Below, piece after piece: positions 11,213 to 43,774 of a DNA stretch of 64,000 bases. A program made the translations under genes and the position numbers. The stretch covers positions 12,254-76,253 of IMG/VR virus record IMGVR_UViG_3300028048_000107, one strand, 5' to 3'. Source of the DNA: a virus (lineage: Duplodnaviria > Heunggongvirae > Uroviricota > Caudoviricetes). The notes beneath the pieces are model-generated. The model was not told the origin of the DNA, did not search any database, and saw only the letters and a program-made list of their open reading frames with translations. Numbering within the stretch: position 1 is the stretch's first letter; every line of letters starts with the position of its first letter.

Positions 11213-13511
11213 CTAACTTTACTAAATTATGATATTCATCGAATCTATACTCATTACCATTCCAACTATCAAATACTGCAACATCAAATGCAGCAGGAAC
11301 ACTAAAACCTACACTACTTCCATCAATACAACATTGCTCTGCAATTTGACATACTTCATAAGCATTCTCAATAGGACAAGTAATGACTAATTCATCATGG
11401 ATGGTTAATACTATTTCAGTACCGAGTTCACGAAGTCTTTCATTATTATATATATTAAGCATCATACGCTTGTTACATATACTACCCTGCCCTTGAATAC
11501 GTGCATTCCAACACTCACGCTCTGCTTTGGCTATTTTCCCACCATTACAATAAATGATTATACCCTTCTTCTTAGCTTCAGCAACAACGCAATCCTCTTC
11601 CTTCCTTCCTCGACAATTATTTAATTTAGTAAAATATAAATTTTCATAATATTTACTAGCTTTTAAATCTTCTTTAAGATATGCAGGTAATTTAACTTCA
11701 TATTTAGGCAACAGTGCATCTGGAAGTCTACGTCTATAGCCATCCATTGTTTCCACATAGCCTTTAGTGTGCAAATCAGCATATGTTTGGTCTATAGCCT
11801 TTTTTAATGCAGGAAAAGATGTAAAAAACTTATCCACTAATTCTTGAGCTTTTTCAAAAGATATATTGACATCTTCACCTACAGCACGTACACCCTTTCC
11901 GTACATCAGCCCCAACAGTATGGCTTTCGCGTGTTTACGCCTAGTTTTACCATCTTTATTTGTCGTACCATCCTCATTAAACTCTAAGCAATCTTTATAC
12001 TCTACATCATATATTTGAGATGCTAAATATGAGTATACATCCAAGTTCTTTCTAAATGAATCCAACATATTTTCATCCTTAGCTGTTTCAGCTGCAATAA
12101 GAACTTCTTGTTTTTTTGCATCTAATGATATCATCACTCTCCCTTTACCAGGACTATACATATTACGTACATCATAAAATCCCGATGGGAGCTGCTGGTT
12201 GTTTGGGTCACTACTAGATATACGTCCAGTCCTCGCACCTAAACTATGGAAATTACAATGTACTTTACCATCATATCTAGCCATTTCAGGAAGTTTATCC
12301 ACAAAGCTACCTAAAACCTTATCATAAGCCTTAACATTAAATACTGCTTTAGCAATATTATATATAGGTTTATCTCTATATTTAGGATTATTTACAATCT
12401 CATTTATAACATGCTTGCCTGTACCACGAGGTTCTTTTTCAAATATGACACCACTATGCAATATATCATAAAATAAAATTTGTAATTGAACAGGACTATT
12501 ATAATTAACTGGATACTCTAACAAACTATTCGGATTAACTCTAATGTATTCTAGTATCTTATCTTTAACAATATCTACAGCTTCATTAAATACAACTACA
12601 GCGTCATCATGCAATTTCGCATATTTAATATGCAATTCTTGTGCCTTATTAAAATCTAACCAAATTCCACGCCAACGCATATCAGCAAAAACAGTAATGA
12701 TAGGTATTTCAATATTATGTAAAAGATCTACCACTTTTTCTAAATGACATTCATCGCATTCTGATGTACCTTTAGTTAAATAAGGTTTCTGGAATATATA
12801 TAAATCATAGCACATTCGCGAATCATGGGCAGCGTATTTTGAGCCTACAGATGGCTTTATATTGCAGAATGGTATGCCATCAAATAATTCTGCAAATTTA
12901 TGAATACCTGCTGATCCTTCCATAACATATTTATCATAAAGATATTTGAGTCCATGAGGCTCATTCTCATTTAATAAAACAGATGCTGGTAATGTATCCC
13001 AATATACTTTTACAAAATAACCTAACACAGCCCTCAATACGACTATATCATAATAAGCATTATGAAAAATAAATTTACACCCACCCTTAATCATAATATC
13101 AAACCCAAGCTTAATGGCTTCTTTTGATACTTGATGTGGGAGTAATTGTTCTGTAATATTACTTATATGCCCAATGGGTGCGTATGCTTCTATTTGATTA
13201 GGACTATAGATACATACACCGACTAACCCTTCAACTTGATCACGGAAATTTAAACCTGTACTTTCGGTATCCAGTGCAACATACTCACCTTCAACAGCTT
13301 TCTTGCAGTACTCAATCCATTTTTCATCTGAGTCTAATAAAATACAATGATAGTCTCCTAATGCTTCCTGAACTTGTGCCTCAATACTAGCCAGCTTATT
13401 TATTAGCGTTCCACTTTTTAATTTTATTTTTGGCTGTTGTATTTCTTGTGTTTTCTTAAGTATTGCTTGTGTAGACATTACTTGTCTTTTAGGAATATTA
13501 AATAATGCCAT
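11205..13511 (-). CDS. DNA polymerase, family A, with 3'-5' exonuclease domain
   Basis: Exo I DTESTGL; motif B RRKHAKAILLGLMYGKG; motif C LTIHDELV. Start placed at MALFNIPK (ATG 13511, RBS AAGGAG) rather than the track start at 13550. Confidence 0.85.
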   Translation of the reverse strand: MALFNIPKRQVMSTQAILKKTQEIQQPKIKLKSGTLINKLASIEAQVQEALGDYHCILLDSDEKWIEYCKKAVEGEYVALDTESTGLNFRDQVEGLVGVCIYSPNQIEAYAPIGHISNITEQLLPHQVSKEAIKLGFDIMIKGGCKFIFHNAYYDIVVLRAVLGYFVKVYWDTLPASVLLNENEPHGLKYLYDKYVMEGSAGIHKFAELFDGIPFCNIKPSVGSKYAAHDSRMCYDLYIFQKPYLTKGTSECDECHLEKVVDLLHNIEIPIITVFADMRWRGIWLDFNKAQELHIKYAKLHDDAVVVFNEAVDIVKDKILEYIRVNPNSLLEYPVNYNSPVQLQILFYDILHSGVIFEKEPRGTGKHVINEIVNNPKYRDKPIYNIAKAVFNVKAYDKVLGSFVDKLPEMARYDGKVHCNFHSLGARTGRISSSDPNNQQLPSGFYDVRNMYSPGKGRVMISLDAKKQEVLIAAETAKDENMLDSFRKNLDVYSYLASQIYDVEYKDCLEFNEDGTTNKDGKTRRKHAKAILLGLMYGKGVRAVGEDVNISFEKAQELVDKFFTSFPALKKAIDQTYADLHTKGYVETMDGYRRRLPDALLPKYEVKLPAYLKEDLKASKYYENLYFTKLNNCRGRKEEDCVVAEAKKKGIIIYCNGGKIAKAERECWNARIQGQGSICNKRMMLNIYNNERLRELGTEIVLTIHDELVITCPIENAYEVCQIAEQCCIDGSSVGFSVPAAFDVAVFDSWNGNEYRFDEYHNLVKLGE

Positions 13512-35948: not shown

Positions 35949-36071
35949 TTAACACTAACATGTGAACTACTCCCACTTATAAAAGTGGGAGCTTCTAATT
36001 ATCATCGCTTCACTGTCTAAGTATAAAAACTTGTCCTATACGTAGATATATGTGATAACTCCCATTAGACT

Positions 36072-37511
36072 TTAGGACAAGTTCCTTGCCCTTTTTGAAC
36101 GCAAATTAGCTAAAGAAAACTTACTTTGCTTTTCCTCAAATAATTTAGGTTCAATCATAGATATTCCAATATCTCTAATATTCAAAGATGCATTATAATC
36201 TCTATATAGATGTTTACCACAACCGCCACAATCATACTCCTTAATAGCTAAATTTTTAGTCAATGCGTTTATATAACCGCACTCATGGCATTTTTGTGTA
36301 GATTTTTCAAACCTATTTATCTTTACAAAAATCATGCCTTTATGTTTTAGTTTATACTCTAACATTAACCTAAACATACCAAATCCATTGTCTAACAAGT
36401 TTTTAGCTATTTTAAGTGTTTGCGACATTGCTCTTAAATCAATATCTTCTACAGAAACTAGTGCAAATTGCTTTGCTATCCTAAAGGAAAGTACATGTAG
36501 TGCATTCTTCCTTATATTAGCTATCTTCCTATGAAGTTTTTGAATTCTTTTAAGCAACTTTAGGTACGCATTGCTTTGTTTTTCCTTCTTCGCAAGTTTT
36601 TTCTGTAATGCTTTAAGCTTACATTCATTTTTGCGATATGTCTTTTGAAAGGATGCTAATATATTATCTAATAAGGTTTTATCCTTACTGCTAGGAACAC
36701 ATCCACCTTGTTGTGCATAATCTAATCCAAGACATAATTCTTTATGTTCATTCAAATAATCTTTGACTTTACATAAAGTTTCTTTATCATGTTTTAATGT
36801 AACATACTCTTTAGTATATATTACAGTTAAAGACACAGTATATCTATCTTGACCTATTCGCTTAATAACTGCTTTGGTTATTCTGTAATTTTCTGGTAGG
36901 TCACGATGATACCTTAGTTTTATTGGATTCTTTAACTTAGGTATTACAAGCGTCATATACCTACTACTTTCTCCAAGATACTCTTCTAACCTTACTGTAC
37001 CTTTTTGATTATTGGTAGTAAAAGATTGTTCAGAAAAGAATTTAGCTGAAAATTTAGGCATACCTTTTAAATCTCTAAAAGTAAGCTCTTTGCCTATAGT
37101 CTTAACTTGTTTAAGAGCTTTCTTTTTATATTGATTACCTTTAGACACAAATTCATCATTATATTTCTTAATAGAGTTTACAAAATCTAGCCTTACCGCT
37201 GATAAAGCTAATGAATCTACTGCTTTCATATAAGAAAACTTTTCTTTTATAAATTTAACTGTAGGTAAATTCTTTACAAATTCTTTAGGAATATAGCCAC
37301 GCTTAAAATTTATACTTTCAAGATAATCATATAACTGAGCAACAAATATATTATGTAATTGACGTTTACAACCGCAATTTTTATGGATATACTGACATTG
37401 CTCAGTAGTTGGGTATATTTCATAGACATACCCAGCAGTAAACTCTTTTTCTAATTTTTCCAAGAATCCCAATCTTAAAAACTTGTCTTGTAGATTATGC
37501 ACAACATTCAC
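36072..37511 (-). CDS. tnpB: TnpB (IS200/IS605 OrfB family), 479 aa
   Basis: N-terminal YVYEIYPTTEQCQYIHKNCGCKRQLHN; C-terminal KCHECGYINA...CGGCGKHLYRDYNASLNI ZF + RuvC-III; own promoter TTGACA-N17-TAAAAT at 37525..37553 and RBS AAAGGAGG. Confidence 0.75.
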   Translation of the reverse strand: MNVVHNLQDKFLRLGFLEKLEKEFTAGYVYEIYPTTEQCQYIHKNCGCKRQLHNIFVAQLYDYLESINFKRGYIPKEFVKNLPTVKFIKEKFSYMKAVDSLALSAVRLDFVNSIKKYNDEFVSKGNQYKKKALKQVKTIGKELTFRDLKGMPKFSAKFFSEQSFTTNNQKGTVRLEEYLGESSRYMTLVIPKLKNPIKLRYHRDLPENYRITKAVIKRIGQDRYTVSLTVIYTKEYVTLKHDKETLCKVKDYLNEHKELCLGLDYAQQGGCVPSSKDKTLLDNILASFQKTYRKNECKLKALQKKLAKKEKQSNAYLKLLKRIQKLHRKIANIRKNALHVLSFRIAKQFALVSVEDIDLRAMSQTLKIAKNLLDNGFGMFRLMLEYKLKHKGMIFVKINRFEKSTQKCHECGYINALTKNLAIKEYDCGGCGKHLYRDYNASLNIRDIGISMIEPKLFEEKQSKFSLANLRSKRARNLS

Positions 37512-37524
37512 CTCCTTTATAGAT

Positions 37525-37553
37525 ATTTTAACATATCTTTAGGGTTTTGTCAA
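37525..37553 (-). promoter_or_regulatory. sigma-A-type promoter for tnpB #2 (TTGACA-N17-TAAAAT)
   Basis: Plus-strand tgtcaa 37548..37553 and atttta 37525..37530; RBS and ATG follow. Confidence 0.5.
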
Positions 37554-37702
37554 TCCTCACCTCTATAGGTAGGGGATTGACTTGCTGATAAATTTACTTC
37601 ATCAACTTCTTCTATAATTTTAATAATATCTTCTTTTGACATTTCTTCCAACCCTTAACGACAGTTTCTTTCCATTCTTGTGTCAACATAATTATCTCAT
37701 TT

Positions 37703-37862: not shown

Positions 37863-37890
37863 CAAAAAAGGCAGAAATTTATTTTCTGCC
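37863..37890 (-). terminator. intrinsic terminator immediately upstream of promoter
   Basis: GGCAGAAAtttatTTTCTGCC hairpin with a 7-nt T-run on the minus strand. Confidence 0.55.
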
Positions 37891-37893
37891 TTA

Positions 37894-38127
37894 AATTCCT
37901 TTACCTAATTTTTCTAATAATTTATTAAGATATTCTACTAAGTTACTTCTCAAAAAGTATAACCCGCCGATCATTGCAGTCATAGAAGCCCATTTACCTA
38001 AATCTTCCAATGAACCTAATGGGTCTAGTTTACTTCTTTCCTTTACATACCAATGTATAGATGCTGTTAACTGTTGTCCTAAAGTATATGTTAGGTTACT
38101 TGCTTGTTGTTGTACTACCTGAAACTC
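37894..38127 (-). CDS. 3' exon of IStron-interrupted gene (C-terminal ~77 codons, no start codon of its own)
   Basis: Minus-strand frame open for 77 codons from the element's right end (GEFQVVQQQASNLTYTLGQQ...LYFLRSNLVEYLNKLLEKLGKGI*); such a stop-free stretch is improbable by chance in AT-rich DNA. Confidence 0.4.
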
Positions 38128-38289
38128 CCCATAGCTGAAGCTAGAGGGTTCTTAGGTACTTGATAGCCTTTTCTTACTCTCGAAAGATACAAGTATCAAC
38201 TATCTTCCCTAAAACTTTTACAGACAAGTGCTCCACTGAACGCATTAGCGTCTGCATAAGGCCCGTTTCAAGACCTTTAATATTTTATG
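38127..38289 (-). ncRNA. candidate omega-RNA scaffold / IStron 3' region (tnpB stop to right-end hairpin)
   Basis: ~160-nt GC-richer segment (GAAACGGGCCUUAUGCAGACGCUAAUGCGUUCAGUGGAGCAC...) between tnpB stop and the right-end hairpin; by analogy to TnpB systems the guide would be the ~16-20 nt just beyond 38126. Confidence 0.3.
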
Positions 38290-39777
38290 TTAAATTCCTA
38301 CACTACTTAATAACTTTTTACCACTATCCTTAATAGAAACTAATCTTTCTATTTCTTTATTATGTAACTCTAAAAAGTTATTATATCTTTCATTACACTT
38401 TTCTAAATTAAAACTTGATAAATCTTCATTAACATTCATTATAAGAAATGCTGAATATAAATCACGTTGGACTTTGTTTCCTTCTATATTGTTCCAACGC
38501 TCATTTCGCTCCTTCTTCTTATATTCTCCAGTAACATGATTATATTGAGATGCTTTCGCTTCTCTTGTATTTATCTTTATCAACTCTTTCCCAAAATAAT
38601 GAAGCTTCCTATCTAAAATCTCTAAAAACATTGCTGGTGCTCTGTTTGCTATGGATTTTCCATAACGCTTCCTACTTAGATTCTTACCCTTCTTACTCTT
38701 CTTGGCTTCTTTTGCTTTCTTTGCTAAAGCCTTAAAATCCATATCTTCTACATAAAAGGTATCTCCTAAAGTAAGTAGATGGTTTGTAAGAAGTTCATGC
38801 TGATATTTTCTCAATACTCTCTGTTTTCTGTAAAGCTCTTTAAGCTTAAAGAGTATCTTCATATAATGATTACTTCTTACCCAATATTTTGCACCTTTCT
38901 TACAAGTTCCGTTAGCATTAAAATTATTTGGGTTAGTTGCTCTACGACTACGATCAAGCTTTCTTTGAAGTAAAAGTCTTTCTCTTTCATACCCTTGGGC
39001 TTTATCTGCAAGCTCTTTTAATGACACTTCAGTTTCAGAAGAATAGGCTATTGTAGATGTACCAATATCTATTCCTACATCCCCTTTACCTAACTTCTGA
39101 GTGAATTTACCATCAGATTTTCTTCTCTTTGCTGGACGTAAACCTTTAAATACTATCTGTAAATAATATTTACGTTTTCCTCTTATATATTTTCTGATTA
39201 CTCTGCAATAAGCAATTTCCATTGCTAAAGCTTCCACTTCATAAGAATTTTTCTCATCTATAATTACAGGAAAATTCAACCCTCCCCAAACACACATATT
39301 TTTATCTGACTTATACATAATAGCATTTTTATTATTCTTTCCTTCTAAAGACTCTACACTACCAAATTTCTTGAAGTGTATTTCTTCACCATCCTTATAA
39401 AAATACCTTACGTATGCGTCCCATACTCTATTAGCTATTGCTATAGCTATATGTGTGTTTACATGATTCTTAAAATGATATCTTAAAGATGTCATCATTC
39501 CTTGTAATCCATGTTTACTTAATCCAGTCTTTTCTCGTAAATCGTTGATTTGCCTATAAATTTCTTTATCATGTTCTGATTTATCATGCTTTAATTCTTT
39601 CATTAGGCTTCGATACTGCTTAGTCTTTTCAAGTTCTCGTAAAACTTTTAAACTCTTGTTTACCAAGGCATTATAAAGCTTTCGACCAGCTTCTATCCGC
39701 TTGTCGATAATATCTTCTTGCCACGATTCTGTTTTTAGTTTAAGTGTTAGTACAAATCTTGGTTCGTCTTTTGCCAT
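38290..39777 (-). CDS. tnpB: TnpB-like RuvC nuclease lacking the zinc finger (divergent IS200/IS605 OrfB)
   Basis: RuvC-I GIDIGTSTIA, RuvC-II YVEDMDF, RuvC-III QRDLYSAFLIMN; N-terminus RFVLTLKLKTESWQEDIIDKR...RKLYNAL parallels TnpB RLYPTxEQ...RxVYN; no Cys between RuvC-II and III. Promoter TTGACA-N17-TATAAT at 39800..39828, RBS AAGGAGG. Confidence 0.7.
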   Translation of the reverse strand: MAKDEPRFVLTLKLKTESWQEDIIDKRIEAGRKLYNALVNKSLKVLRELEKTKQYRSLMKELKHDKSEHDKEIYRQINDLREKTGLSKHGLQGMMTSLRYHFKNHVNTHIAIAIANRVWDAYVRYFYKDGEEIHFKKFGSVESLEGKNNKNAIMYKSDKNMCVWGGLNFPVIIDEKNSYEVEALAMEIAYCRVIRKYIRGKRKYYLQIVFKGLRPAKRRKSDGKFTQKLGKGDVGIDIGTSTIAYSSETEVSLKELADKAQGYERERLLLQRKLDRSRRATNPNNFNANGTCKKGAKYWVRSNHYMKILFKLKELYRKQRVLRKYQHELLTNHLLTLGDTFYVEDMDFKALAKKAKEAKKSKKGKNLSRKRYGKSIANRAPAMFLEILDRKLHYFGKELIKINTREAKASQYNHVTGEYKKKERNERWNNIEGNKVQRDLYSAFLIMNVNEDLSSFNLEKCNERYNNFLELHNKEIERLVSIKDSGKKLLSSVGI

Positions 39778-39799
39778 ATATCTCAGCCTCCTTGACTAT

Positions 39800-39828
39800 A
39801 TTATAGACCATAAAGGTCAAAATGTCAA
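39800..39828 (-). promoter_or_regulatory. sigma-A-type promoter for tnpB #3 inside the IStron
   Basis: tgtcaa 39823..39828; tataat (RC) ~39800..39805; 17-nt spacer. Confidence 0.5.
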
Positions 39829-39839
39829 GGGAAATTTTC

Positions 39840-40305
39840 ATAAAATATTAATTTTTTTAGAACCCTCTAACTTCGCGATTTGAGAGTTTGTCGTTCCCAC
39901 GGAAACGCTACCTTCCATGACGTTCTCTTATGAACTGCTTGACATTTCTGCCAAGCACAGACTATATCTTATCCATGTTACAAAATTAAATTTGTAATTT
40001 AGGTCTTATTTACTTCCCTAGTGCTTACTAGGTACTGCCCTCGTGAGGCATAGTCGTTGATCCTTTTTATTGGATGCTGATTGTCTATTTTCTACGATTA
40101 ATGTTTAGGATTTAACCTTGCATTATCCAAATCATTGTTTTTACTTTCATAACCTATTTATAGGTTGATTTGGCTTTAAGAGTTTCCAGCTATTCTAATA
40201 CTGCACTGCTTAACTTTCTCTTAAGTTAAGACTACATACAAGTTTCCCTATATGCTGATTGATTGTATTATGCTCCTATCCCCATAGCTGAAGCTAGGGG
40301 ATTGC
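39840..40305 (-). ncRNA. group I intron ribozyme core of the IStron (5' part of element)
   Basis: Minus strand: R element GAUCAACGACUAUGCC (plus 40051..40060 tagtcgttga) and S element GGAUAAGAUAUAGUCUG (plus 39959..39970 agactatatctt) ~80 nt apart; nearly identical to the R/S of nrdD intron 1; ~480 nt without any ORF. Confidence 0.55.
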
Positions 40306-40780
40306 GGAGCATGTTTAATCGGTCATGTACTCCATTTTTTAATGCTGTATTTATTACATCTTTTTGTGCATCTATATTTTTCTCTAATTCTTTATACCAT
40401 TGTTTTGCCTCATCTATATTTTTTGGCTCTACAAATGCATAAGAATTTACAATAGCTTTTGTAGTATCTGCTATTACTGTATTTACAGTTTCTTTTACTA
40501 TCTCTTTTGGTTTTTCTTTATTTTCTGTTGATAGCATTACTACTTCTTTACTTATTATTTGATCTATATCCACTACTTTTAATACAAAAGATTGTGTAGA
40601 AAAATCTTTCTTAGTTATAGTTACTGGTAATACTCCTACTTCTATTCCGCTTATTGAAGTATTTCCTAAATTATCAGTTGTTCTTTCTATTAAACCTTTT
40701 CCTTCTAAATTAAATACTACTGAAGCTTCTTTAACTGGCTCTCCTGTTAAATCTTTTGTTTGTATTTTAATTTGTGCCAT
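40306..40780 (-). CDS. 5' exon of IStron-interrupted gene
   Basis: Track ORF 40268..40780 reads through the element's left hairpin and stops 12 codons later; the real gene probably continues in 37894..38127 after splicing. Confidence 0.4.
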
Positions 40781-41135
40781 CTACAATTACCATCCTTTCT
40801 ATTATTGTATTTGCATCTTCTATTTCTACATGGGTTATCTGACCAAAAATATCAAAATCATATTTTCCTTCTCTTAACCCTGTAATAGTTATTATATTTC
40901 CCTCACCCTTTTTATATACTTTTCCTATATCTTCTATACAAAATCCAGCCTCCACATTTTGCAGAGGCTTTCCTTCTTTATTTATTACACAAAATTTTAC
41001 TGTAGCTCTATACTCACTATCTAAAAAATTAATTAATTTATTACTTAGTTTTTCTAAGTATTCATCACTATGTTTATCCATGAACCTTAATAGATACGGT
41101 ATTATTGCAGCTACTAAATTTGCTATGAATTGCAA
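40767..41135 (-). CDS. hypothetical protein
   Basis: 122-aa ORF after the holin. Confidence 0.4.
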   Translation of the reverse strand: MQFIANLVAAIIPYLLRFMDKHSDEYLEKLSNKLINFLDSEYRATVKFCVINKEGKPLQNVEAGFCIEDIGKVYKKGEGNIITITGLREGKYDFDIFGQITHVEIEDANTIIERMVIVDGTN

Positions 41136-41148
41136 CTAACTCACCTCT

Positions 41149-41487
41149 CTATTCCTCCTCCTTTAATTCATGTGGAATTTGTAATACTTTATTATATACA
41201 GAAGTTACTACCCCATTTCCACCTAAATTATGATATGCTATATACATATTACTTATATTTTCTAGTTCTTCTATTTGTATTTTTCCTATTCTACTAAAAT
41301 GATTATATGCTTGTAGTATTCGATCTCTAAGTACTGCTCTTATACCATTTTTAATAGCTTCTGATTCTTCTCGTTCTTTTTCTTTTTCTTCTTCCCTTTT
41401 CTTTAATTTAATTCCTACATACCCTACTATTATTGTCATTAGTCCTTGTAGTATTAAAGTTAAACTCATTTTATCACTTCCTGCCAA
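41149..41487 (-). CDS. putative holin (LL-H-like; single N-terminal TM)
   Basis: TM LTLILQGLMTIIVGYVGI, then charged KKREEEKEKEREE and a YHNLGGNG motif recalled from LL-H-family holins. Confidence 0.45.
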   Translation of the reverse strand: MAGSDKMSLTLILQGLMTIIVGYVGIKLKKREEEKEKEREESEAIKNGIRAVLRDRILQAYNHFSRIGKIQIEELENISNMYIAYHNLGGNGVVTSVYNKVLQIPHELKEEE

Positions 41488-43774
41488 AATGTACGCATAT
41501 TAATCTTAAGTTATCTACATAGATGGTTTCTAATGCTTTTTCTACAACATCCTCATTGTTAGTAGCATCACCATCTTCTACTATTCTTTCTGCTTCTTTG
41601 TTGGCTGGTGTTATTGAATATGTTACTCCATCATAATCTATATAAAACTCTCCACCTAAAAGGTTTACTGGATTCTTACTTAGCCTACTATCAGTTATTA
41701 CCTTTGGTAGTGGTCTATTTTTATCTAATAGTTCTATATCTACTTCTCTATCATTCTTTGTTAAGTAGTATTCCCCATACATATAATGCTTACCATCTAC
41801 TTCTTTTATTATTAATATCTCAAAATCTAAGTCTACTGGCTTTCTTATAGGCTCTACTATTGGTCTATACTCCTCATACACTTTAGGTTCAGGTTTAGGT
41901 ATAGGTTCTACTTTATTAAAGTTTATTGTTATAGGTACTGAATCTCCTATTTTTCCTTTTTCTTCATGCGAACCTGTATATGTTATGTTTATTGTTGAAC
42001 GAGGATTATTTATTTCTTGTATAAGACCTCTAACTGTATTCTTAGCATCATCTACATCTGCCCAACTATTACCATTATTTTCATGCCAACCTATTGCAAC
42101 ATATGGTTGGTCATAATTAGAATTATTATTAGGCTCATTAAATACATAACCAAATATTCCTTTTGGGTCTTTAGACCAAGCTGAATATGTATGTGTTATA
42201 CCTTCTCCTTCTCCTGTTGATGTAAAAAATATTACATCTTTAGATATTCCTGTATACCACTTAAATACTCTATTATCTTTAATGTTCTTACCTACTATAT
42301 CTGTTCTTCCACCGAGGAAATATTCATAACTTTTACCTTTTAGCATGGAAGTTACTCTCCAATTTTCTAGTGAATCAGTTATTGTAGCTAAATACTTATC
42401 ACCAACTGCATCTCCACCTTCAGTTCCTTCTTTTGCAGAATTAACTGCATTTACCCATATATTTAATATAGACTCTCTATTATCAGTACTATTATATGCA
42501 AATGTTGTTAATATATGTTTAGCTAGTTGTGTATATTGAGCATCAGTTAAATTATCAAAATCCGTAGCTTCAGTTAAACCATTTAACTTTACATTTGTAT
42601 TAAAATAAGCCTTTACTGCTTCTTGCTCATCAGTTGGTAAATGTCTATTATGATAACCTTTATATTCATCTAAGCATCTATCCCTAATAATAGCATATTC
42701 TTCACTAGTTAGATTTTCAAAGTCTTTATATACTATATTTTTTAGATAGTTTTCATAATAAAACTTAGCTAGACTTTTCATTGCAGGCTCATCTTTTACA
42801 TCGACCCCATGAGTGCTAACATTTTCATATATTTTATAAGAGTTTGCCGAATCTATATTTGAATGGAAAGTTATATTTTCTGTACCTATATCTAAAGTGC
42901 TGTTGTCTACGGCTACATTACCATAAAAGTTAATATCTTTTGCGCTTATATTACCTTTTCCACTAGGATAATTAAAATAAGTGCCAGTAGTTGATGCGTA
43001 GAATGTTAAATCTTTATCAGTAGCTATATTAGCACCTACGCTAATCATACCTTTATAATCTTTATCATAATCCGCGCCAAAAGTAAGATTTCCTGTAGAA
43101 GTTATAGGAGAATTTATATTTGTATCTACCTTAGATATTAAATTAGTATCTCCAGTAGATATAAAAGTACCATTTTCTAAATTTATATTTTCTCCTACAG
43201 CTGTAAAATTATTTACTTTTGTATCGCCTGTTATTAACACATCATCACTAGATTTTAGATAAATTTCGCCATCTTCGCCTAATTCTACTTTATCAGCCTT
43301 TATTATACCATCCATATTTATTATATTACCATGTTCATCAGGCTCAAAAGAAATTAATGGGTCAGTTGACATACTAAAATTAGCCATTATATCATCTGAA
43401 ATATTAGTTGTAGATGCTATAAATGCTCCAGTATCTATTTGGCAACCTTCACCAAAAAGAATACCATTAGGATTAATTAGTATGACTGTACCATCAGATT
43501 GTATTTTGCCAAAAATAGAGGATAGATTATTGCCTACCACTCTATTTAAGGCTATTCCACCATTTTGATTAAATCTTACTAATTCATTTCTATCTACATT
43601 AAAAGTATTCCAGTCAATAGCTACTCTATTAGTATTTTGTGTTATTACCATTGAGTTACCATCTCTAGCTATATCTGCGCTACCTGACCTAATATTTTCA
43701 CCAGTAGGTAGTGCAAAAGCAGTATTAAATGTTGCTAGTGAAGCTAAAGATATTGCTAAAGCTGAAAATTTCAA
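41474..43774 (-). CDS. secreted protein with TpsA/FhaB-type TPS domain (haemagglutinin-activity domain), 766 aa
   Basis: Sec signal MKFSALAISLASLATFNTAFA; then ITQNTNRVAIDWNTFNV...LVRFNQ...ALNRVVGNNLSSIFGKIQSDGTVILINPNGILFGEGCQIDTGAFIASTTNISDD, matching the PF05860 haemagg_act consensus (aLNRV.g...S.i.G...aNG.v.LiNPNGi.FG.ga.vd.g.lvAST.di). Confidence 0.65.
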   Translation of the reverse strand: MKFSALAISLASLATFNTAFALPTGENIRSGSADIARDGNSMVITQNTNRVAIDWNTFNVDRNELVRFNQNGGIALNRVVGNNLSSIFGKIQSDGTVILINPNGILFGEGCQIDTGAFIASTTNISDDIMANFSMSTDPLISFEPDEHGNIINMDGIIKADKVELGEDGEIYLKSSDDVLITGDTKVNNFTAVGENINLENGTFISTGDTNLISKVDTNINSPITSTGNLTFGADYDKDYKGMISVGANIATDKDLTFYASTTGTYFNYPSGKGNISAKDINFYGNVAVDNSTLDIGTENITFHSNIDSANSYKIYENVSTHGVDVKDEPAMKSLAKFYYENYLKNIVYKDFENLTSEEYAIIRDRCLDEYKGYHNRHLPTDEQEAVKAYFNTNVKLNGLTEATDFDNLTDAQYTQLAKHILTTFAYNSTDNRESILNIWVNAVNSAKEGTEGGDAVGDKYLATITDSLENWRVTSMLKGKSYEYFLGGRTDIVGKNIKDNRVFKWYTGISKDVIFFTSTGEGEGITHTYSAWSKDPKGIFGYVFNEPNNNSNYDQPYVAIGWHENNGNSWADVDDAKNTVRGLIQEINNPRSTINITYTGSHEEKGKIGDSVPITINFNKVEPIPKPEPKVYEEYRPIVEPIRKPVDLDFEILIIKEVDGKHYMYGEYYLTKNDREVDIELLDKNRPLPKVITDSRLSKNPVNLLGGEFYIDYDGVTYSITPANKEAERIVEDGDATNNEDVVEKALETIYVDNLRLICVHFGRK

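Follow-up and report, generated by a model that had tools for sequence, protein, structure and literature searches.

What is the insertion of about 2.2 kb that interrupts a minus-strand gene in this phage, and how could the interrupted gene still be read? The locus lies in a stretch of 64,000 nucleotides (nt) of tailed-phage DNA (Caudoviricetes; IMG/VR record IMGVR_UViG_3300028048_000107, positions 12,254 to 76,253), here called the window, to which all coordinates refer. A first-pass annotation made from the sequence alone had described the insertion as a chimera of a group I intron and a TnpB element, and that the gene is split was confirmed. We find it highly probable that a non-autonomous IS200/IS605-family IStron has inserted in a phage gene here. 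Judged by its sequence, it is an IStron by every feature testable in silico. A group I ribozyme lies at the 5' side and tnpB lies 3' of it in the same element. The element ends coincide with the exon junction, and removal restores the open reading frame (ORF) of the host gene, as it does in the related loci L002 and L173. Copies are found at unrelated sites with a conserved 5' target, a variable 3' flank and no duplication. Splicing and nuclease activity are both inferred.

Host gene and limits of the insertion

L-numbers such as L002 and L172 denote fetched loci; those fetched with the family alignment comprise many Bacillota genomes and IMG/VR phage contigs. All ORFs of at least 90 amino acids (aa) around the IStron are on the minus strand. 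The upstream neighbours are genes matching phage tail and tail-fibre families, and the downstream neighbours are a second tnpB gene followed by a helicase gene. Read without splicing, the interrupted gene is a 170-codon ORF (40780 to 40268, minus strand) that ends 54 nt inside an ORF-free region.

A naive concatenation of both flanking reading frames was used as the query for a homologue search. Of the 26 proteins that it matched, most have 216-229 aa and align over the full query. In an alignment with thirteen uninterrupted homologues the concatenation holds 17 surplus residues. The homologues read ALKNGVHD/VVQQQASN at the junction (the slash marks the insertion point), and joining position 40322 to 38118 gives NGVHD/VVQQQ in frame. 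The closest intact allele, on phage contig L172, has CATGAT/GTAGTT at the insertion point, and blastn against this contig places the breakpoints at window positions 40323 and 38118. Based on the alignment, the empty site and the breakpoints, the insertion covers 38119..40321 on the minus strand, 2203 bp in total. The limits given in the first-pass annotation, 38127..40305, were wrong by 8 and 16 nt, having been set at two hairpin copies that are really subterminal. Joining the exons at the hairpin copies was rejected, as it produces the 17 spurious residues. The alignment and L172 also reduce the 3' part of the gene from the 77 codons first proposed to 75. The features that result are as follows.

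40322..40780, minus strand: 5' exon, 153 codons, ending in GTACATGAC; aligns to residues 1-153 of the 228-aa homologues P0001-P0025
40322..40325, minus strand: TGAC target motif and predicted target-adjacent motif (TAM) of TnpB; these are also the final four bases of the exon before the 5' splice site
38119..40321, minus strand: whole IStron, 2203 bp, starting with CGATTAA and ending with GAGTTTCAG; no target duplication
37891..38118, minus strand: 3' exon, 75 codons (38118 to 37894) plus a stop codon (37893..37891); aligns to residues 154-228 of the homologues
37868..37892, minus strand: terminator-like hairpin 3' of the host gene

Both exons together encode 228 aa, and most of the closest homologues are of this length. 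The 3' exon has no start codon of its own; its frame is open and 96% identical to intact homologues. The predicted ligated junction in the RNA is GGAGTACATGAC joined to GTAGTACAAC, i.e. GAC/GUA. That removal of the element restores the host frame, as had been expected, is supported by the uninterrupted homologues and by the L172 allele, in which the flanks are joined in frame as one gene. The product of the 5' exon has a weak CarboxypepD_reg-like domain at its N-terminus, and no function could be assigned to the host gene by domain or PHROG matching.

Element ends and family

The window contains exactly two copies of the 18-nt sequence CTAGCTTCAGCTATGGGG, both oriented the same way; the chance expectation is 0.03. 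Both copies are inside the element, 19-21 nt from the left end and 8 nt from the right end, and each is part of a hairpin.

40270..40312, minus strand: left-end extended hairpin, in which the outer stem AUGCUCC/GGAGCAU encloses the subterminal hairpin CCCCUAGCUUCAGCUAUGGGG (40278..40302)
38127..38148, minus strand: subterminal hairpin of the right end, CCCUCUAGCUUCAGCUAUGGGG, separated from the end by 8 nt
38119, minus strand: terminal G (omega-G) of UCAG, 3' splice site and right transposon end, fixed by the exon junction

The outer stem at the left end covaries between copies (AUGCUCC/GGAGCAU, CGCGCC/GGCGCG, ACGCGGC/GCCGCGU). The arms of the right-end hairpin vary among family members yet stay complementary; in the 80 right ends listed the hairpin is followed by AGUNUCAG, and TCAG terminates 78 of them.

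TGAC is found directly 5' of the element in seven of seven independent insertions of the sub-lineage (window, L002, L173, L012, L092, L193 and L197). Their 3' flanks are unrelated and no duplication is present. Full copies at other sites are L002:2457-4660, L173:2456-4660, L012:2385-4642 and L193:891-3142, while L174 and L175 are partial copies. Copies with 84-95% nucleotide identity occupy different phage genes. A search for hairpins yielded the left ends of 24 loci, most of which abut TTAC or TCAC; the TGAC sites are those of the sub-lineage copies. Scans of metagenomes of the Joint Genome Institute and of IMG/VR with the exact 18-mer of the left end gave chance matches in unrelated coding sequences and nothing else.

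A Y1 HUH transposase gene (tnpA, 133-150 aa) lies directly upstream of same-family tnpB in 83 loci, exactly at the position held by the ribozyme in the window element. Since its relatives carry Y1 tnpA, the element is assigned by sequence to the IS200/IS605 family. It also has same-orientation subterminal imperfect hairpins at both ends, a fixed target at the left end, no terminal inverted repeats and no duplication. The first reading of the two repeats as IS200/IS605 subterminal hairpins, and not as a target duplication, is upheld by the empty site, the family ends and the tnpA-bearing relatives. Clostridium botulinum phage c-st (L138-L140) and Geobacillus virus E3 (L135) carry members of the family as well. 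We also observed that phage c-st has three intact tnpA(Y1)-tnpB copies of this zinc-finger-less family, and that Geobacillus virus E3 has an intact tnpA(Y1)-tnpB too.

Group I ribozyme and splice sites

The 5' part of the element contains no ORF, carries the group I R (UCAACGACUA) and S (AAGAUAUAGUCU) elements and folds as a group I ribozyme. All of this agrees with the first-pass annotation except for the length, which is 544 nt and not about 460.

39897..40255, minus strand: group I ribozyme core with P2, P2.1, P3-P9, P7.1/P7.2, P9.1 and P9.2
40256..40264, minus strand: proposed internal guide sequence AAUCAAUCA, directly before P2; pairs with exon UGAC and intron CGAUU (P1)

When 561 nt were searched alone, the Rfam model RF00028 gave a full-length match at 39938..40261 (28.4 bits, E 2.6e-5). 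The homologous, more GC-rich copy in L012 (Mitsuokella) scores 62.7 bits, above the curated cut-off of 50, and aligns to the window element over nt 1-484 (nhmmer E 1.8e-44).

The helices P2-P9.2 were drawn by hand and their pairs counted in two small alignments, with the structure drawn from one of the counted members. The counts, which are to be read with this in mind, were as follows.

Six sequences: 97% of cells paired; 33 pairs changed on both sides; shuffle mean 10.4; slid controls 3-7
Seven sequences: 95.9% of cells paired; 42 of 111 pairs changed on both sides; shuffle mean 18.8; slid controls 4-9

In both alignments none of 500 shuffles reached the observed number of both-side changes. 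P5a, P7.2, P8, P9 and P9.2 each have several independent compensatory changes. The drawn structure includes a P7.1/P7.2 pair, typical of subgroup IA, and a terminal G is present at the 3' splice site (38119), as in group I introns. The sequence places the ribozyme in group I, IA2-like.

The 5' splice site is unusual. The family targets T-N-A-C, and the last exon base is thus C. In published IStrons the base at exon position -1 is U (group A) or G (group B) (PMC4227781; review PMC13565253). A U.G wobble pair is not found at the splice site of the window element; the best P1 sets the exon C opposite A, with seven Watson-Crick pairs flanking two adjacent C.A positions. The motif AAUCAAUCA is found in all intron-bearing copies with a sequenced left end and in the remnant L003, and it is missing from the intron-free copies L092 and L197. 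In L175:1-20 it is replaced by AAUCAGUCA, which differs in the base proposed to pair with exon -1, here a G; this contig begins within the element, leaving the 5' flank outside it. Reading the first 130 nt of the element revealed no alternative guide with G opposite the exon C (GUCA), and AAUCAAUCA would be the sole plausible guide sequence.

TnpB protein

The middle of the element had been described as a zinc-finger-less TnpB with its own consensus promoter, which holds in every part.

38290..39777, minus strand: tnpB, 495 aa, with D236, E343 and D438

Pfam gave no match to the 495-aa protein, including no TNB domain. NCBIfam guided_TnpB matched below its cut-off (E 4e-20), and phrog_506 matched with E 2e-42. 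Over 2800 relatives were detected; of the top matches listed, 120 of 120 have an empty precomputed Pfam field. All 16 aligned members share D236 (GIDIGTST), E343 (YVE) and D438 (QRD), and none of the 16 has CxxC pairs of a C4 zinc finger between RuvC-II and RuvC-III. An AlphaFold (AF2) model with a predicted local distance difference test score of 81 matched ISDra2 TnpB (8h1j, E 3e-12). The best PDB matches from Foldseek are all TnpB structures (8h1j, 8iaz, 8exa), including ISDra2 and ISFba1 TnpB. As modelled, the protein has a TnpB fold with the RuvC D-E-D triad. Large TnpB branches without the zinc finger have been published, some of them enriched in viruses (PMC10691335).

From the sequence of the junction, TGAC is the predicted TAM, and the guide is predicted to come from the start of the 3' exon. 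By analogy with the known TnpB mechanism, the guide would be the first 16-20 nt or so of this exon (GTAGTACAACAACAAGCAAG). TGAT or TGAA replaces TGAC at the insertion point in three of three distinct intron-free alleles (L172:3435-3483; L177 and L178:1936-1983; L179:1936-1983), which also have 1-3 changed bases within the initial 16 nt of the target predicted for the guide. These differences could reflect chance or escape from TnpB homing.

3' RNA, internal promoter and competing folds

The last part of the element is a GC-richer structured RNA, as the first-pass annotation had it.

38119..38289, minus strand: omega-RNA-like scaffold and right end, the last 171 nt of the element
39859..39871, minus strand: 5' arm of a long-range inverted repeat, GUUAGAGGGUUCU, upstream of the promoter
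38140..38152, minus strand: 3' arm of the inverted repeat, AGAACCCUCUAGC, sharing bases with the long-range stem of the omega-RNA and with the right-end hairpin (5' arm)
39800..39828, minus strand (read from 39828 to 39800): internal promoter TTGACA-17-TATAAT preceding tnpB, 12 of 12 matches to the sigma-70 consensus, followed by AAGGAGG

The GC content is 40% in the 171-nt region, 33% in the element and 31% in the window. The region was found by nhmmer behind tnpB in 107 loci. It is 81% identical to the corresponding region of L003, while the tnpB DNA is 62% identical, i.e. the RNA region is better conserved than the coding DNA. The consensus stem-loops and the long-range UCUUAG/CUAAGA stem all have compensatory changes, and the fold agrees with the published omega-RNA architecture (10.1101/2023.11.20.567912).

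The arms of the inverted repeat form 13 bp with -22.8 kcal/mol, compared with -11.5 kcal/mol for the right-end hairpin alone. The core of the repeat, GGGUUC/GAACCC, is found in all intron-bearing copies. The remnant L003 and the intron-free copies L092 and L197 have no 5' arm at their left ends. Because the 3' arm overlaps two omega-RNA helices, the ribozyme-competent fold and the omega-RNA fold would be mutually exclusive. Both the ribozyme core and the 5' arm lie upstream of the internal promoter, and transcripts from this promoter should therefore be unable to form the long-range helix. Competition between ribozyme and omega-RNA had been suggested in the first-pass annotation; the overlapping 3' arm speaks for it, and such competition has already been demonstrated for IStrons (bioRxiv 10.1101/2023.11.20.567912).

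Related copies

Copies of the sub-lineage differ in whether the intron is present and in where they lie.

Window, L002 and L173: intron-bearing; within phage ORFs, sense orientation, in frame
L012 (Mitsuokella): intron-bearing; ORF status uncertain
L193: intron-bearing; outside any clear ORF
L003-L010: element nt 12-136 and 361-459, approximately (nhmmer), and the 3' end kept; most of the P3-P9 core, including R and S, gone; between called genes
L092: left end of just 187 nt, without intron and without tnpA; between called genes, with no ORF across the site
L197: left end of just about 120 nt, without intron and without tnpA

Regular expressions for the R and S elements, applied to about 175 loci then fetched, found no ribozyme upstream of other family members, where tnpA is present instead. 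As a separate observation, a different IStron-like element adjoins the core-deleted relative in L003-L008 (about 369-2491). Its R and S elements lie at about 695 and 773; it also encodes a 409-aa TnpB with zinc finger, has long AT-rich repeats and replaces 412 bp kept in L009 and L010, including part of an energy-coupling factor (ECF) transporter gene.

Proposed mechanism and alternatives

In the reading that we favour the IStron would have four parts: a left end with a subterminal hairpin, an IA2-like ribozyme at the tnpA position, a zinc-finger-less tnpB with its own promoter, and an omega-RNA scaffold forming the right end. It would have inserted 3' of TGAC, in sense orientation, in a 228-aa gene between the tail-fibre genes and the helicase gene. 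Transcripts from the host promoter would fold the ribozyme. P1 would form between exon UGAC plus intron CGAUU and AAUCAAUCA, with a C.A pair left at the splice site. The 13-bp helix between 39859..39871 and 38140..38152 would loop out tnpB and bring the terminal G (38119) to the core, and splicing would restore the intact 228-aa reading frame. The same 3' bases would serve two omega-RNA helices, making splicing and guide-RNA formation exclusive for each transcript. Transcripts from the internal promoter, without ribozyme and 5' repeat arm, would provide tnpB mRNA and omega-RNA only. TnpB and omega-RNA, with the first 3' exon bases as guide and TGAC as TAM, would cut intron-free alleles, and the element would be copied into them. 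Transposition to new TGAC sites would require a Y1 TnpA in trans. The mechanism of IStrons has been described (PMC4227781; bioRxiv 10.1101/2023.11.20.567912; PMC13565253).

Several observations weigh against an active IStron of this kind. The RF00028 score of the window copy, 28.4 bits, is below the curated cut-off of 50. The Rfam search that had been proposed as a check gave a divided result: the 561 nt searched alone matched, while no group I match was returned for the whole window at the gathering threshold or for 5.7 kb at E<=10. The miss in the large regions is a filter and composition effect, not absence. Exon position -1 is C instead of the near-universal U. The proposed P1 has just -3.3 kcal/mol as a bare duplex, with two adjacent C.A mismatches, and its pairs are invariant in five full-length copies and so gain no support from covariation. 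One intron-bearing lineage (L193, L195, L196) lies outside a clear ORF, meaning that the intron is not always needed. Finally, tnpA is absent from the element and from the 64-kb window, and the window copy is non-autonomous for this reason.

The score under the cut-off, the weak and non-canonical P1, the host gene without known function and the related copy outside a clear ORF would all suit a dead insertion, in which the ribozyme no longer splices (e.g. owing to the C at the 5' splice site) and the host gene is a pseudogene with a truncated 170-aa product, dispensable to the phage. We consider this unlikely, as all core helices are kept paired by compensatory changes across lineages whose TnpBs are just 58-59% identical, the 3' exon is still open and 96% identical to intact homologues without a start codon of its own, and three of three phage copies are sense-oriented and in frame. 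Furthermore, group B IStrons whose base at -1 is not U are able to splice both in vitro and in vivo (PMC4227781; 10.1101/2023.11.20.567912). The lack of tnpA in element and window could instead point to a homing group I intron with TnpB as its homing endonuclease, no longer a transposon and spreading just between same-gene alleles of co-infecting phages. Intron homing of tnpB-only IStrons has been proposed in reviews (PMC13565253), and TGAC is missing from three of three sampled intron-free alleles. Near-identical copies at unrelated TGAC sites in different genes nevertheless imply transposition, at least recently, and both subterminal hairpins are intact, which makes pure homing very improbable. 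The least credible alternative is a group B (IS607-type) IStron whose movement depends on a serine recombinase acting at the two direct repeats. The repeat copies are directly oriented and end in GGGG, and the published phage IStrons of c-st are IS607-type (PMC4227781). The true ends are TGAC/CGATTAA and TTTCAG, not GG/CGG, the relatives carry Y1 HUH tnpA and not a serine recombinase, and the repeats are subterminal imperfect hairpins; IS607-type identity was rejected on target, ends and transposase type, and we give it practically no weight.

Beyond the favoured reading of a non-autonomous IS200/IS605 IStron, we tentatively raise a further possibility, which we hold to be rather doubtful: that the junction is a third kind of IStron junction. 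A T-N-A-C-targeting IS200/IS605 lineage would have gained a ribozyme replacing tnpA, and the ribozyme would have adapted to C at the 5' splice site via C.A (or C-G), with transposase, TnpB (TAM) and ribozyme (P1) all recognising TGAC. Spread among phages would occur by TnpB-guided homing during co-infection, and empty alleles would escape by loss of the TAM (GAC to GAT or GAA), a change that three of three sampled empty alleles have.

Comparison with known elements

The closest published elements are group A IStrons (CdISt1/CdiIStron of Clostridioides difficile and FnISt1/FnISt2 of Fusobacterium; PMC4227781, 10.1101/2023.11.20.567912), which likewise have a 5' IA2-like ribozyme, a 3' tnpB with omega-RNA and an IS200/IS605 affiliation. 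They also share the 3' terminus TCAG, the absence of target duplication, splice sites identical to the transposon ends and the usual lack of tnpA. In group A the ORF is known to be flanked by short inverted repeats (PMC4227781); the GC/AU-balanced repeat of the window element has 13 bp (with a 6-bp core in all copies), compared with 6-10 bp in published cases. Of the features that define group A (Tourasse 2014), TCAG and the short inverted repeat are thus found in the window element, whereas the target and the U at -1 are not. Group A IStrons target TTGAT, ATTAT or TTTAT with U as last exon base, while the window lineage targets (A/G/C)TGAC with C. Unlike group A, the window element has a TnpB of a clade of about 490 aa without C4 zinc finger, no tnpA remnant and a perfect internal promoter.

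Group B or IS607-type IStrons (BcISt1, CboIStron, and CbISt3/CbISt4 in C. botulinum phage c-st) are also three-function elements, are found in phage genomes too, and combine an irregular P1 with a base other than U at exon -1. In experiments on the C. botulinum IStron, splicing and omega-RNA proved mutually exclusive (10.1101/2023.11.20.567912). In contrast to the window element, group B has a serine recombinase, GG targets (TAM TGGG), a CGG 3' end and long AU-rich repeats. The GG-ending target, the CGG 3' end and the serine recombinase ORF A that define group B/IS607 are all absent here. Plain elements with a tnpA remnant and tnpB, as in phiCD211 and its relatives, which were matched among C. 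difficile phages, are not IStrons and were set aside.

The zinc-finger-less TnpB branches of Altae-Tran et al. 2023 (PMC10691335) have likewise lost the C4 between RuvC-II and RuvC-III and are frequent in viruses. In branch RIIIr-4 (PMC10691335), compared by description, the RuvC-III aspartate is changed to histidine, while the window TnpB keeps an invariant D438 (QRD). Intron-free tnpA(Y1)-tnpB family members (L047, L128, c-st L138-140, E3 L135) share the TnpB family, omega-RNA, TCAG end, hairpins at both ends and the T-N-A-C target; they differ in having tnpA at the ribozyme position and in mostly targeting TTAC or TCAC instead of TGAC. TTAC is also the target of IS608, an IS200/IS605 element with tnpA(Y1)-tnpB. 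The introns of T4 td and Twort are phage group I introns with protein homing endonucleases (PMC4227781). Like the window element, they are IA2-type self-splicing introns in a phage coding gene with nuclease-driven spread to intron-free alleles. The window nuclease, in contrast, is predicted to be RNA-guided, and the element has transposon ends too, by which it could colonise unrelated genes.

The first-pass annotation overstated the novelty of the configuration, as phage IStrons (C. botulinum phage c-st, PMC4227781) and zinc-finger-less TnpB branches (PMC10691335) have been published. Numerous TnpB clades are independently associated with introns (10.1101/2023.11.20.567912). IStrons, phage-borne IStrons, intron-associated TnpB clades, zinc-finger-less TnpBs and ribozyme/omega-RNA antagonism are therefore already known. 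The combination of a TGAC target, C at -1, the TnpB clade of the window and a ribozyme replacing tnpA is apparently undescribed.

Neighbouring genes

A second, tnpB-only element is found about 430 bp downstream of the IStron, at 35970..37688 (approximate limits), with its ORF at 36072..37511 on the minus strand. Its TnpB is canonical (479 aa, with CxxC...CxxC and the Pfam domains OrfB_IS605, TNB and HTH), and the block of about 1.7 kb is missing from the related phage contig L172. The two small genes at 40767..41135 and 41149..41487 had been labelled as holin genes, for which we found no confirmation: one matches phrog_4105 (function unknown, E 3e-23) and the other has a weak DUF5417 match. 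In the tail-fibre region the N-terminus of a 766-aa ORF (41474..43774, minus strand) resembles, by eye only, a haemagglutination-activity (two-partner-secretion) domain; this ORF has no PHROG match. A 24-kb near-identity search against deposited phages and a tblastn search with a 521-aa ORF both gave no match, and matches of the tail protein are limited to distant (<27%) lambda-J-like proteins.

Significance

IStrons are a model case of one sequence that serves a transposase, an RNA-guided nuclease and a ribozyme. The general principle has been published and the value of this example is incremental. The lineage with a TGAC junction and C at the 5' splice site offers a natural test of how strictly group I introns must follow the U.G rule. 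One lineage contains copies that bear the intron, copies with a deleted core and minimal copies, which allows a side-by-side comparison of intron gain and loss. Additionally, a very large and poorly annotated clade of zinc-finger-less TnpBs is linked to a predicted TAM and guide scaffold. For the phage, the element would represent another route by which a transposon can reside in a gene of the structural region without being lethal to the phage, and it may bias inheritance in co-infection.

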